Of a stretch of 64,000 bases of DNA, positions 24,001-27,000 are shown one piece after another. The position numbers were made by a program. This DNA comes from Endomicrobiia bacterium (GTDB lineage: Bacteria; Elusimicrobiota; Endomicrobiia; DTEH01). Position 1 is the first letter of the stretch, and each line of letters begins with the position of its first letter. The stretch spans positions 32,001 through 96,000 of the forward strand of contig JBCNUU010000004.1 in the NCBI GenBank assembly GCA_039630545.1. Reading direction: 5' to 3'.

Positions 24001-27000
24001 GAAGGAGTAAATGGCGCTTCTCCAACTCCATACACTGTAAGTTCTATAAATTGTCCTGTCTCAAATGAAAATTTATCACCATTTAATGGTTTAAGCGTAA
24101 AAGTTTTTATATTTGAAGTTTCCTGGATGATTTTAATAATTTTAAAATTTTTGGGTCGATATATATTCATTGTTCAAACTTTAGAACTTTCTCACCTTTT
24201 GCTAAAACCAGATTTCTTATTACTTTTCTTATGTCAATTTTAGCAGGACACACTTCAATGCATCTGCCACATCCACTACATGCATACATTTTAAAGTTTT
24301 CATATCTATATACAAATTTGCACTGATATCTATTTCTAAACCTCTGGTATTTATATTTTCTAGGATTAGCCCCACCAGCTACACGAGCATAACCTGTAAA
24401 GTGACACACATCCCAGACTTTATCTCTATACTGGTTTACAACTGAAACAGATGCTTCTCTTATCAAAAAACAATAACAACTTGGACAGATAAAGTTGCAA
24501 CCTCCACACTGAACACATTTTTCTGATTCTTTTTTCCATGTATCTTTTATATCGTAGGTATTTTTAAGCGCAAGATAATATTTGGTTTTATTTTTTTCTT
24601 CTTTAATAAATTCTTTATTAAATTCTATTATTTTTCTTTCAGCTACTTTTCTTACACTGTCTCTTTTTAAAATTTCACTCTCAGTAGGTGGCTCAAATTC
24701 ACTAAAATTTTCTTTTAAAAATTTTTCTCCTTTTAGAGAAAATGCTTCTAATATTAAGTTATTTTCATCTACAAAAGAAATATTTATGTCACTACCATCT
24801 TCTTTTTCTACATATGGTTTTCCTCCGACTATGCTACAAAAACAACTCTCTTTAGGACTTACACAATCAGAACTAATGATGAATGTATTATCTTTGTAAG
24901 TTTTATACTGTTCGTCTATATAATCTTTTAAAAACATATTATCTAAAATCTTTAATGCTTTTAAATCACAAAATTTTACATCTATCAGTAATACATTTTC
25001 TACCTCAAAAGAAATATCTGATATGGGATCTTTTGGTTTAAAAAAGAAAATTTTAGGTGGTGTTAATGTTCTAATATTTAACAACGCTAAATTTTTTATC
25101 TCATCAGTATTTACTATCTTTTTATAAGTTTGATCAAAACAATGCTGAATTATCTTAAAATTAGATAATTTTGCAACAACTGATAAAAGGTCAGAATAAT
25201 TGACGCTTTTTTTCATAATTTTTATTTAGTGAAATTTTTCACAATTTATTTTTTAAAAATAATATAAAATAAAAAATAATTTTTTCAAGAATTTGATATA
25301 ATTATTATTCAATATTCAATTTAAGACATCTCATTTATTTTCTGACATTTTATACAAAGATCTGTCCAGGGTAAAGCGTTTAATCTTTTTTTAGGAATTT
25401 TTTTTCCGCATTTGCTACAAAAACCATATTCGCCTTTTTCTATTTTTTCTAAAGCAATATTTATTAAATTTAAAAGATTTATCTGAGTGTCAGAAAGTTC
25501 TCTACGAACTTCTTTCCCTAAGTTATGCTCCGCAATATCTATTTCATCACCTATTTCTAATGGAAGTTCTATATTATTGTTTTTTTGTAATTTTAAAATT
25601 TCATTATATTTTTCCAAAAGTTTCTTTTTATAAAAATCTAAATCTTTTTTTGAAATTTTTAATTTTCTAGAAGAGGTTTCCTTAACTTCTTTTTTTCTTA
25701 ATTTTCTGAATTTATCTATTTTTTTTACAGTTTTTTTCTTTTTCATAATATTAAACTACCTTATCACCTTAATAGTTTTTAAATTTTCACTTTCCTGACC
25801 GCTAATTCTAACTGTATATGAAGATAACTCTTGAAGATATTCTACAGTATCTTTAGTTATTCTTTCTCCTGGAGTTAAGATAGGTAATCCTGGCGGATAC
25901 GGAGTCAAAGTTTGTGCTGAAATATAACCCACTGCTTTTTTTAAAGGAACTCTTTTCGTATTGGTGGAAAAGAATGCATCTCTAGGCAACATTACTACTT
26001 CTGTAGATAAAGGGGGAATCTGAAGCTTATGCATCTCAGCTTCTCCAGAATATTTTTTAGAAATATCCACAACTGCTTCTACTAATCTATCCATGTCTTC
26101 CTTAGAAGTTCCATATCCAGTAATAGCTACTAAATTAAACATATCAGCACAATCTACCTGTATTTTATATTCCTTAGCAAGAATTTCTTCTATTTTGTAT
26201 CCAGTAAGACCTGTCTTTGTTACATTTATTGTTAATTTTGTTAAATCTAAATCATAAAACTCTGATTTTATTTCTTTTCTCGTCAATGCAAATATATTAG
26301 GCAACTTATTAATTTCATCTCTTACTTTTTCGCAATATGAAATAATTTTACTAAAAACTTTATTCCCATTTTTAACAACCTGCATTCTTGCAGCATCTAT
26401 TGAAGCTAAAATAAAATAATTAGGACTTGTAGTCTGTAACATAGAGACCACCCTTTTTACTCTACTTATATCAATTTTAGAAGAATTAAAGTGTAAAACA
26501 GAAGCTTGACTTAAAGCTGAAAGTACTTTATGGATTGAGTGGACACACATATCCGCACCTACTTCTACAGCAGAAACAGGTAAATCCGGATGAAATTTCA
26601 AATGCGGACCATGTGCTTCATCAACTAATAAAATTTTGTTGTATTTTTTGCATACTTCTTGAATTTTTATTAGATTCGGACATATACCATTGTAATTCGG
26701 AGAAGTAACAAACACAGCTTTAGCTTCCGGGTAGTTGTTTATATATTCCTCTATCTCTCGGGAAGATACTTCATATATAATATCTCTCTGTTGGTCGACT
26801 ACAGGTTTTGCCCATATGGGCCAAACTCCAGCAAGAATTATTCCAGCTAAAACAGATTTATGACAGGTTCTTGATAGTATTACGGAATCACCAGGATCAC
26901 AAGCAGCTAATAACATCGCAATATTTCCTACTGTTGATCCATTTACTAAGAAAAAAGAACTTTTAACATTATATGCTTTAGCTGTAAGATCCTGTGCTAA

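Follow-up and report, generated by a model that had tools for sequence, protein, structure and literature searches.

An Endomicrobiia bacterium (DTEH01; GCA_039630545.1) encodes a DksA-family protein that, judged from its sequence, is rather likely to be a working protein acting without ppGpp, in an order that has lost GreA, RelA/SpoT and Der. GreA, the RelA/SpoT homologue (RSH) enzymes and Der are regarded as near-universal and are often essential in model bacteria. The gene lies in the window analysed here, a 64,000-nucleotide stretch of contig JBCNUU010000004.1 in which contig position 32,001 is position 1. Its features, and those of the adjacent decarboxylase gene, are collected in Table 1.

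Table 1. Features of the dksA-type gene and its upstream neighbour, in window coordinates.
Feature	Position	Strand	Remarks
dksA-type gene (g00953)	25321..25746	-	141 aa, ATG start; RNA-polymerase secondary-channel protein, DksA/TraR family
Coiled-coil tip D67-E-I-D70-I-A72 (DxxDxA)	25531..25548	-	Read from sequence
C4 zinc finger C110-x2-C113-x17-C131-x2-C134	25345..25419	-	Followed by invariant Q135, at the E. coli K139 position
Lys-rich N-terminal tail, residues 1-31	25654..25746	-	Predicted disordered or low-confidence
Orn/Lys/Arg decarboxylase gene	25756..27249	-	Directly upstream of dksA; Pfam OKR_DC_1, 241.6 bits

The DksA-type protein and its gene

The ORF scores 43.8 bits against Pfam PF01258 (zf-dskA_traR; cut-off 24.9), which places it in the DksA/TraR family. 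It falls short of the NCBIfam DksA equivalog cut-offs, with 70.4 bits for TIGR02420 (profile positions 2-109 of 110; cut-off 115.5) and 69.3 bits for NF033459 (cut-off 105), and the protein therefore belongs to a divergent subfamily, which may have a different mode of action. The equivalog cut-off is reached by none of the 199 phylum matches of this DksA type. A profile built from 40 orthologues matches E. coli DksA (1tjl) with an E value of 1e-22 over E. coli residues 25-143. The eight top Foldseek matches of an AF2 model (pLDDT 75.4) are all DksA structures, while TraR reaches merely E 0.11. Helices span residues 33-57 and 75-104 of the model, and the pLDDT is about 50-54 across residues 1-30. 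Both features that set DksA proper apart from TraR and from short proteins of the YbiI type, namely a long coiled coil of two helices ahead of the finger and a DxxDxA tip, are present, the tip loop (residues about 58-74) being of low confidence in the AF2 model.

Within the tip, D67, D70 and A72 align to D71, D74 and A76 of E. coli DksA; a role for D74 and A76 is described in 10.1101/188680. These three residues are invariant in 68/68 and in 40/40 orthologues, and the four zinc-finger cysteines in 68/68. The set of 68 sequences was drawn from 70 loci (L025-L094) after removal of L025, a duplicate of L092 from the same genome, and of L049 (genome G198), which falls outside the four-Cys pattern: in this further orthologue the second Cys is Asn, and the tip and Q135 are kept. 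There are 14 invariant columns in the orthologue alignment, among them G66, D67, D70, A72, the four cysteines and R121. The ORF at 25321-25746 is real; with its C4 zinc finger, intact DxxDxA tip and DksA fold, its product belongs to the DksA family. Many families of the phylum, though not all, have a comparable basic N-terminal tail, which varies in length.

Orthologues were found in all ten genomes of the order (46-71% identity) and the DksA type in 199 of the 201 phylum genomes that are at least 90% complete; it is short (about 113-160 aa) and single-copy in nearly every one. A separate search for related loci with the protein returned 12 distant loci from Patescibacteria and other MAGs, none of them from its own lineage, and these were left out of the analysis. 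The decarboxylase gene ends 9 nt before the dksA start on the same strand, and this gene order is conserved in 10/10 genomes of the order, representing three genera; the two genes probably form one operon.

Absence of GreA, RelA/SpoT and Der

We searched the genome for each missing family with several profiles. At E<=10 there were no matches to either GreA/GreB profile (PF01272, PF03449) or to the RelA/SpoT profiles PF04607 and PF13328 (HD_4), and the best match to the Der profile TIGR03594 was MnmE (144.8 bits; cut-off 306.7). Phylum-built profiles, run with unfiltered hmmsearch over the 10,841 ORFs of the genome, gave best E values of 0.094 for GreA and 0.41 for RelA, and for Der recovered single-G-domain paralogues alone, at no more than 68 bits. 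Across the order, GreA_GreB and RelA_SpoT were found in none of the seven genomes of at least 90% completeness and were over cut-off in none of the remaining three (G004, G005 and G007). Der was over cut-off in 0/10; this order-level absence refers to TIGR03594, PF14714 having been run here on five Der-less genomes outside the order.

The places where these genes stand in relatives tell the same story. The arrangement hflX-der-plsY-gpsA is represented in this genome by a tightly packed hflX-pgsA-like-plsY-gpsA; ispG and proS, which flank greA in relatives (ispG-greA-proS), lie apart, and neither junction fits greA; and relA, found in relatives as msbA-like-(x)-relA-recG, is at neither of the corresponding junctions. 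The survey's finding that the three genes are absent order-wide is thus borne out both by the profile searches in ten genomes and by the empty ancestral sites in this one. As far as genome sequences can tell, the loss of GreA, RelA/SpoT and Der from the order is genuine, and EngB and RbgA have gone as well.

How far these losses characterise the order is a different matter. In a phylum sample of 201 genomes, each at least 90% complete, GreA was found in 180 and not in 21, which reproduces exactly the earlier count of 180/201, as does its absence from all six genomes of the family, and agrees with the claim that GreA loss is limited to a few lineages. RelA/SpoT was found in 153/201 genomes and not in 48, spread across many families. 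For Der, with eight candidates per genome scored at E<=1e-50 and a permissive re-check covering five Der-less genomes, the corresponding numbers are 65 and 136, the latter including a closed one-contig genome; for EngB they are 73 and 128. All four of Der, EngB, RSH and GreA are missing in 14/201 genomes, and their losses form a mosaic among families. In the phylum, most genomes lack Der and EngB, and loss of RelA is common; because of this, GreA alone among the three noted losses is lineage-specific, and the loss of Der is not an event at the level of this order. The organisms of the lineage are apparently known from draft, multi-contig assemblies alone.

Functions left without their usual factors

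Obg, HflX, YchF and MnmE are encoded in the genome, and every TRAFAC GTPase detected was assigned to a family other than Der. RbgA was not found by search and EngB was found in 0/7 genomes of the family, so that of the GTPases usual in 50S assembly Obg would be left, along with HflX and YchF. The absence of Der and EngB from most of the phylum suggests a stable alternative 50S assembly route. One or more of the lost functions might have passed to a substitute that is non-homologous, or too divergent for profiles to detect, such as a novel transcript-cleavage factor or another 50S assembly factor. This would overlap with the explanation that we favour; we consider it possible, though on the unlikely side. 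It gains from the near-universal nature of the lost functions, EngA being described as ubiquitous even in Mollicutes (PMC4014445), from the widespread lack of Der and EngB just noted, and from the fact that only part of the genome's ORFs was examined. It loses from the negative searches for GreA N- and C-domains, the TFIIS ribbon and a second DksA/TraR protein, which yielded no candidate, from the assignment of the detected TRAFAC GTPases to other families, and from the cyanobacteria, which are reported to do without a Gre substitute by way of the polymerase itself (PMC7026648). Two adjacent P-loop ORFs (C23:1613-2737 and C23:2758-4593) passed a GTPase-motif regular expression and had no NCBIfam match; Pfam identifies them as a MoxR-type AAA ATPase and a vWA protein, and they were rejected as Der substitutes.

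The dksA-type ORF is the sole match to PF01258 over cut-off in the genome (1.60 Mb, 95.5% complete). A second, weak match on C23 (13.1 bits) was set aside: it is to a membrane protein that has a zinc ribbon but lacks a coiled-coil tip. GreA/GreB domains, Rnk/Gfh1 (which share these domains) and TFIIS-type ribbons are absent from the genome, in keeping with the survey's description of the DksA/TraR-type protein as the only secondary-channel factor detectable. An archaeal-style cleavage factor was likewise discarded, the TFIIS-type zinc ribbon being over cut-off in 0/10 genomes of the order. If it works like its homologues E. coli DksA and TraR, the protein would insert its two-helix coiled coil into the secondary channel of RNA polymerase, bring the invariant tip (DxxDxA) close to the active site and thereby change promoter-complex stability. 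The statement that backtracked polymerase must be handled in other ways needs a correction: Mfd is present (837.8 bits, over cut-off) and could handle stalled polymerase here. The polymerase may in addition cleave RNA by itself, as it does in cyanobacteria.

Alternatively, the DksA type could have taken over the job of Gre in Gre-less lineages, either stimulating cleavage or otherwise rescuing backtracked polymerase. This would suit the last secondary-channel protein left, with its invariant acidic tip, and the residue after the tip Ala is Ser or Thr in 43/47 orthologues from GreA-containing genomes versus 2/21 from GreA-less ones. However, 180 genomes that have GreA also carry this DksA type, and the tip is invariant there too. 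The 21 GreA-less sequences come from five families, two of which (f8 and f19) keep Ser/Thr, so that two or three events account for the contrast, and since the sequences are not independent it is no more than a lead. E. coli DksA is not known to stimulate transcript cleavage, and we judge a take-over very unlikely.

The reading of a DksA-family protein that acts without ppGpp draws on both the protein and the genome. The basic residues of ppGpp site 2 in E. coli DksA are R91, K94, K98, R129 and K139 (10.1101/188680; PMC7676912). In our alignments all five are replaced, by T87, N90, L94, L125 and Q135 respectively, unlike in a ppGpp-responsive DksA of the E. coli type. The position of E. coli K139 is Gln in 68/68 orthologues and that of R129 is Leu, Ile, Met or Val in 68/68; a basic residue is found at the K98 position in 1/68 and at the R91 position in 0/68. 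These orthologues comprise 33 from genomes with RelA and 35 from genomes without, and the site-2 columns do not differ between the two groups, which is unlike a ligand site selected in one group alone. Site-2 loss does not track RelA loss, and we therefore gave up the notion of a DksA 'orphaned' only recently. Because the site-2 residues are absent phylum-wide, RelA-keeping lineages included, ppGpp-independence appears to be an old property, and the DksA type is probably ppGpp-independent by design rather than orphaned. The same observation tells against the premise of a protein working together with ppGpp, which the survey describes for other bacteria.

Other residues of the protein could in principle bind ppGpp. 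The protein would then still depend on ppGpp that is imported or made by an unrecognised enzyme and bound by residues other than those of E. coli, and 153/201 phylum genomes do combine an RSH enzyme with the same DksA type, so that a ppGpp link is possible there. In this genome both the synthetase domain and the HD_4 hydrolase domain are missing; given also the loss of the five basic residues and the likeness of the columns in both groups of genomes, we hold continued ppGpp-dependence to be highly improbable. Least credible of all is that incomplete assembly or faulty binning of the MAGs created the three absences and that the genes exist unassembled: the genome is indeed a draft of 82 contigs and three of the ten order genomes are just 77-88% complete, but the genes are missing from ten independent assemblies (a chance loss of one gene from all ten would be of the order of 1e-12, taking the completeness values as independent), the ancestral sites are internal to contigs of 33-267 kb, where other genes directly adjoin, and Der is absent even from the closed genome of another family.

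With ppGpp-free action of the DksA type as our preferred reading, the protein offers a clear testable case of a DksA expected to act without ppGpp, and the phylum a set of genomes to compare in the search for whatever makes up for the missing Der, EngB, RSH and GreA. The distribution of Der also calls for caution with completeness estimates and marker-gene trees that rely on TIGR03594. A bolder combination, which we think distinctly unlikely, would be an order with genomes of 1.2-1.9 Mb in which a ppGpp-blind DksA is the sole secondary-channel factor, backtracks are resolved by DksA or by a cyanobacteria-like self-cleaving polymerase, and Obg is the sole classical 50S GTPase. If true, the phylum would be a natural knock-out series, with combinations of Der, EngB, RSH and GreA, for replacements of 'essential' genes. 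The genome sizes of the order are those of free-living bacteria.

Related systems

The closest well-characterised protein is E. coli DksA (1tjl, 5vsw and 7khi), which shares the coiled coil, DxxDxA tip, C4 finger and C-terminal helix and is matched with a Foldseek probability of 1.00 at an identity of only about 23-27%. The dksA-type protein differs from it in a shorter globular part, a Lys-rich N-terminal tail and the replacement of the site-2 residues by T, N, L, L and Q, and its host genome, unlike that of E. coli, has no ppGpp enzymes.

Chlamydia trachomatis DksA (6ptg) is matched by the profile with E 1.8e-22 and ranks third in Foldseek (TM 0.83 normalised to the target). Chlamydia retains a GreA homologue, whereas this order is without GreA. 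As reported in PMC9126822, Chlamydia keeps its DksA orthologue without enzymes for ppGpp synthesis or breakdown, and the protein failed to complement E. coli dksA. Zinc density is described there as absent from the Chlamydia structure, whereas the C4 finger sequence of the dksA-type protein is intact.

The best single-sequence match in the PDB is a short DksA-like protein of Agrobacterium tumefaciens (2kq9, 112 aa; E 7.4e-11, residues 36-135). It is similar in size, has a C4 finger too and also lacks site 2, with Val and Ala at the E. coli R129 and K139 positions; its tip, DDEDRA, is close to DEIDIA, though in a different register. A. tumefaciens has ppGpp as well as a canonical DksA.

Cyanobacteria are likewise bacteria without any Gre factor and, as described in PMC7026648, compensate for this by a polymerase with high intrinsic hydrolysis; the Synechococcus control in our GreA scan gave no match over cut-off. 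The compensating polymerase has been demonstrated in cyanobacteria. A systematic, phylogenetically structured absence of the Der marker TIGR03594 is reported for Omnitrophota, a phylum of uncultured bacteria, and for PVC bacteria (PMC10066038), and a phylum-scale lack of RSH for PVC bacteria in PMC3153485, which already in 2011 carried the entry 'Elusimicrobia: Rel[HS] or 0'. Omnitrophota and the PVC bacteria are other phyla, whereas in this one Der, EngB, RSH and GreA are lost as a mosaic among families. The loss finding is solid and its novelty moderate, each loss having a precedent: Gre is missing from cyanobacteria and Der from Omnitrophota, Chlamydia has a DksA without ppGpp, and Elusimicrobia are listed as 'Rel or 0'.

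Absence of GreA, RelA/SpoT and Der from the order

Profile searches of all 10 genomes of the order, lineage-tuned profiles and synteny agree with the survey's finding that GreA, RelA/SpoT and Der are missing from the order. The sample comprises one family with three genera. GreA_GreB and RelA_SpoT were found in none of the seven genomes at completeness of at least 90% and over cut-off in none of the other three, and Der was over cut-off in 0/10. In our genome (1.60 Mb, 82 contigs, 29.4% G+C, 95.5% complete), RelA_SpoT and HD_4 each gave no match at E<=10, and the top match to the Der model TIGR03594 scored 144.8 bits, with the cut-off at 306.7. 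The G-domain matches of that search were all assigned to other families: MnmE, Era, HydF, HflX, Obg, YchF and EF-Tu by NCBIfam name, and IF2, LepA, an EF-G-like protein and FeoB by eye. Lineage-tuned profiles from the phylum's own proteins (4 GreA, 3 Der, 5 RelA) were run unfiltered over the complete set of 10,841 stop-to-stop ORFs (40 aa or longer) of this genome; the best E values were 0.094 for GreA and 0.41 for RelA, and Der recovered single-G-domain paralogues only (<=68 bits). RbgA/YlqF was not found in this genome either (44.8 bits at best, cut-off 208.2).

The ancestral gene sites can be recognised from relatives. In those of the same class the der site reads hflX-der-plsY-gpsA; on C45, a 135 kb contig of our genome, a 179-aa pgsA-like gene stands between hflX and plsY-gpsA, the genes overlap or abut, and no der remnant lies between hflX and plsY. 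Relatives carry greA as ispG-greA-proS; here, ispG (C56, 104 kb) is directly followed by convergent genes and a 600-aa ORF stands ahead of proS (C1, 267 kb). The relA site in relatives runs lpxB-like, msbA-like, (x), relA, recG; here, the msbA-like gene is overlapped by the 261-aa ORF that comes next, and recG (C4, 33 kb) neighbours a divergent 485-aa gene. Together with the lineage-tuned searches, this synteny shows that the three absences are real gene losses and not assembly gaps.

Coordinates of the features discussed (window positions unless a contig or locus is named)
Feature	Position	Strand	Remarks
dksA-type ORF	25321-25746	minus	ATG start, 141 aa
Codon of E73, after the tip Ala	25528-25530	minus
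Orn/Lys/Arg decarboxylase gene	25756-27249	minus	497 aa; Pfam
Polyamine-type gene cluster, divergent from decarboxylase-dksA pair	27243-29705	plus	Orn/DAP/Arg decarboxylase-fold protein (393 aa), saccharopine-dehydrogenase-like protein (417 aa)
Three Fe-S/flavoprotein genes downstream of dksA	22828-25216	minus	349-aa Fer4_22, 273-aa, 171-aa Cys-rich
pgsA-like gene at der's place	G000:C45:9649-10188 (L004:797-1336)	minus	TIGR00560 97.4 bits, cut-off 109.1 not reached
MoxR-type AAA ATPase and vWA/metallopeptidase-like genes (L097, L098)	G000:C23:1613-4593	minus	375 aa and 612 aa
RelA/SpoT homologue of a relative	L099:3495-4958

Spread of the losses over the phylum

The same 201 phylum genomes (completeness at least 90%) were scanned for five families, and the GreA_GreB count reproduces the survey's figure.

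Occurrence in the 201 phylum genomes (f numbers are families of the sample)
Family	Found	Missing from
GreA_GreB	180/201	own family (order DTEH01), f8, f9, f17 (0/8), f19, f21, two single genomes
RelA_SpoT	153/201	own family, 15/17 genomes of one small-genome genus, some 15 further families
Der	65/201	e.g. f18 (0/71), f22 (0/18), f27 (0/10), f17 (0/8)
EngB/YsxC	73/201 (72 over cut-off)	own family (0/7), f18, f22, f17
DksA type	199/201	one f9 genome, one f18 genome

The Der scan was limited to 8 candidates in each genome (E<=1e-50); a permissive re-run on five Der-less genomes, one of them closed in a single contig, gave at best 151 bits against TIGR03594 and no KH_dom-like match below E 0.5. 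These counts show that, among the GreA, RelA/SpoT homologue (RSH), Der and EngB losses, only that of GreA is lineage-specific; RSH loss is common in the sampled phylum, and loss of Der and EngB is its majority state. The losses of RelA and Der, which the survey had followed in the order only, are therefore not specific to it. When the presence lists are combined, all four are missing together from 14/201 genomes, seven in our own family and seven in f8, f9, f17 (three), f19 and f21. In G107, a single draft genome of f9 (96% complete), all four are unmatched and the DksA type is unmatched at E<=1e-5; this genome may be without any secondary-channel factor.

In the phylum's RSH proteins (relatives' loci L099, L100, L101, L015 and L016), which are short, most open frames span 480-500 aa, and only positions 1-453 of the 687 in the spoT_relA model are matched. 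The C-terminal regulatory half is thus lacking, in agreement with the Rel of Elusimicrobium minutum, noted as having no ACT domain (PMC3153485).

A DksA-type protein without the ppGpp site

The DksA/TraR-type gene reported in the window is borne out by its ORF, Pfam score, finger, tip and fold. The ORF starts 9 nt past the stop of the decarboxylase gene on the same strand, and its product scores 43.8 bits against zf-dskA_traR (cut-off 24.9). It aligns end to end with the NCBIfam DksA model TIGR02420 (positions 2-109 of 110), scoring 70.4 bits, below the cut-off of 115.5. The zinc-finger cysteines are C110-x2-C113-x17-C131-x2-C134, and upstream lies the DxxDxA coiled-coil tip, D67-E-I-D70-I-A72. 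A 40-orthologue profile matches E. coli DksA (1tjl) at E 1e-22, with the tip aligned to D71, D74 and A76. The AlphaFold2 model from that alignment (mean pLDDT 75.4) has a zinc ribbon and helices 33-57 and 75-104, with low confidence in the loop at the tip and in the Lys-rich stretch 1-31; a Foldseek search of the PDB with it puts eight DksA structures at the top (probability 1.00 each). Family membership, fold and invariant tip are thus established; with this gene a known family gains a new member.

As a rule a genome carries one copy of the DksA type, and none of its matches in the 201 genomes reaches the equivalog cut-off. Within the order it occurs in 10/10 genomes (46-71% identity to the window protein), always directly downstream of the decarboxylase gene. 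The 393-aa and 417-aa proteins of the divergent cluster may be carboxynorspermidine decarboxylase and dehydrogenase. In same-genus genomes dksA is followed by the 349-aa and 273-aa genes, which is not so in the other two genera. The closest pattern-based relatives outside the lineage (L102-L113, from a species-genome collection) are mostly Patescibacteria/CPR MAGs, with 42-59% identity over the zinc-finger half.

PF01258 recovers one further, weak match in the genome (13.1 bits), rejected as a second DksA/TraR protein: it belongs to a membrane protein that carries a zinc ribbon and lacks the tip. Neither Gre domain (Gfh1 and Rnk fall under the same two) gave a match in this genome at E<=10, and no genome of the order (0/10) has a TFIIS-type ribbon over cut-off. 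The DksA-type protein thus remains the sole detectable secondary-channel protein, as the survey had it.

Site 2 for ppGpp in E. coli DksA is described as R91, K94, L95, K98, R129 and K139 (10.1101/188680; PMC7676912). Zinc-finger-anchored alignments place T87, N90, L91, L94, L125 and Q135 of the window protein there. Of 70 fetched loci, a duplicate and a C3-finger variant were left out; RelA+ genomes supply 33 of the 68 orthologues compared and RelA- genomes 35. In 68/68 the three tip residues (D, D, A), all four Cys and the counterpart of E. coli R125 are unchanged; the K139 position is Q and the R129 position L/I/M/V in every one, and a basic residue stands at the K98 position in 1/68 and at the R91 position in 0/68. 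The site-2 columns are alike in RelA+ and RelA- genomes, which rules out that the DksA type was orphaned by RelA loss, and argues that the E. coli ppGpp site was never present or was lost long ago. A role as ppGpp partner, as played by DksA in other bacteria, accordingly does not fit: both the ppGpp enzymes and the site-2 residues are missing, the latter also in orthologues from RelA+ genomes.

Two variations were seen among the orthologues. That of L049 (G198, family f30) has its second finger Cys replaced by N (C-x-x-N ... C-x-x-C) but retains the tip and the Q that follows the fourth Cys. At the position next to the tip Ala (E73 in the window protein), S/T occurs in 43/47 orthologues from GreA+ genomes and 2/21 from GreA- genomes, otherwise G, E, D, K or others in the latter; with only five GreA- families, this contrast may reflect phylogeny rather than function.

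Possible compensation and known systems

The window protein would occupy the secondary channel and modulate initiation without ppGpp, like DksA alone and TraR. Mfd is present (837.8 bits, over cut-off), and backtracked polymerase may be handled by Mfd and intrinsic cleavage; in Gre-less cyanobacteria, a highly hydrolytic polymerase is described as compensation (PMC7026648). Obg, HflX, Era and YchF are also present, and 50S assembly could rest on Obg and other factors. Elsewhere in the genome, the adjoining MoxR-type ATPase and vWA/metallopeptidase-like proteins have no NCBIfam match at 1e-10.

A full-text search, with subscription journals and supplements outside its scope, returned no report of Der/EngB loss in Elusimicrobiota. 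The survey's observation is confirmed and strengthened, and its reading supported in part only: the pattern of gene loss is genuine, but every part of it has precedents, and for two of the three genes the loss is not peculiar to the order. What is new is that Der, EngB, RSH and GreA are lost in a mosaic across the phylum, that these losses coincide in this order, and that a DksA without the ppGpp site is kept almost universally. In an RSH census of 2011 the entry, from 2 taxa, reads 'Elusimicrobia: Rel[HS] or 0' (PMC3153485), and TIGR03594 was left out of an Omnitrophota marker set as only infrequently present there (PMC10066038). EngA is given as ubiquitous among all Mollicutes (PMC4014445), so that genomes of 1.2-4.6 Mb that have lost it are still notable. 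Chlamydia trachomatis is reported to keep DksA with all ppGpp enzymes missing, and its DksA does not complement E. coli dksA (PMC9126822).
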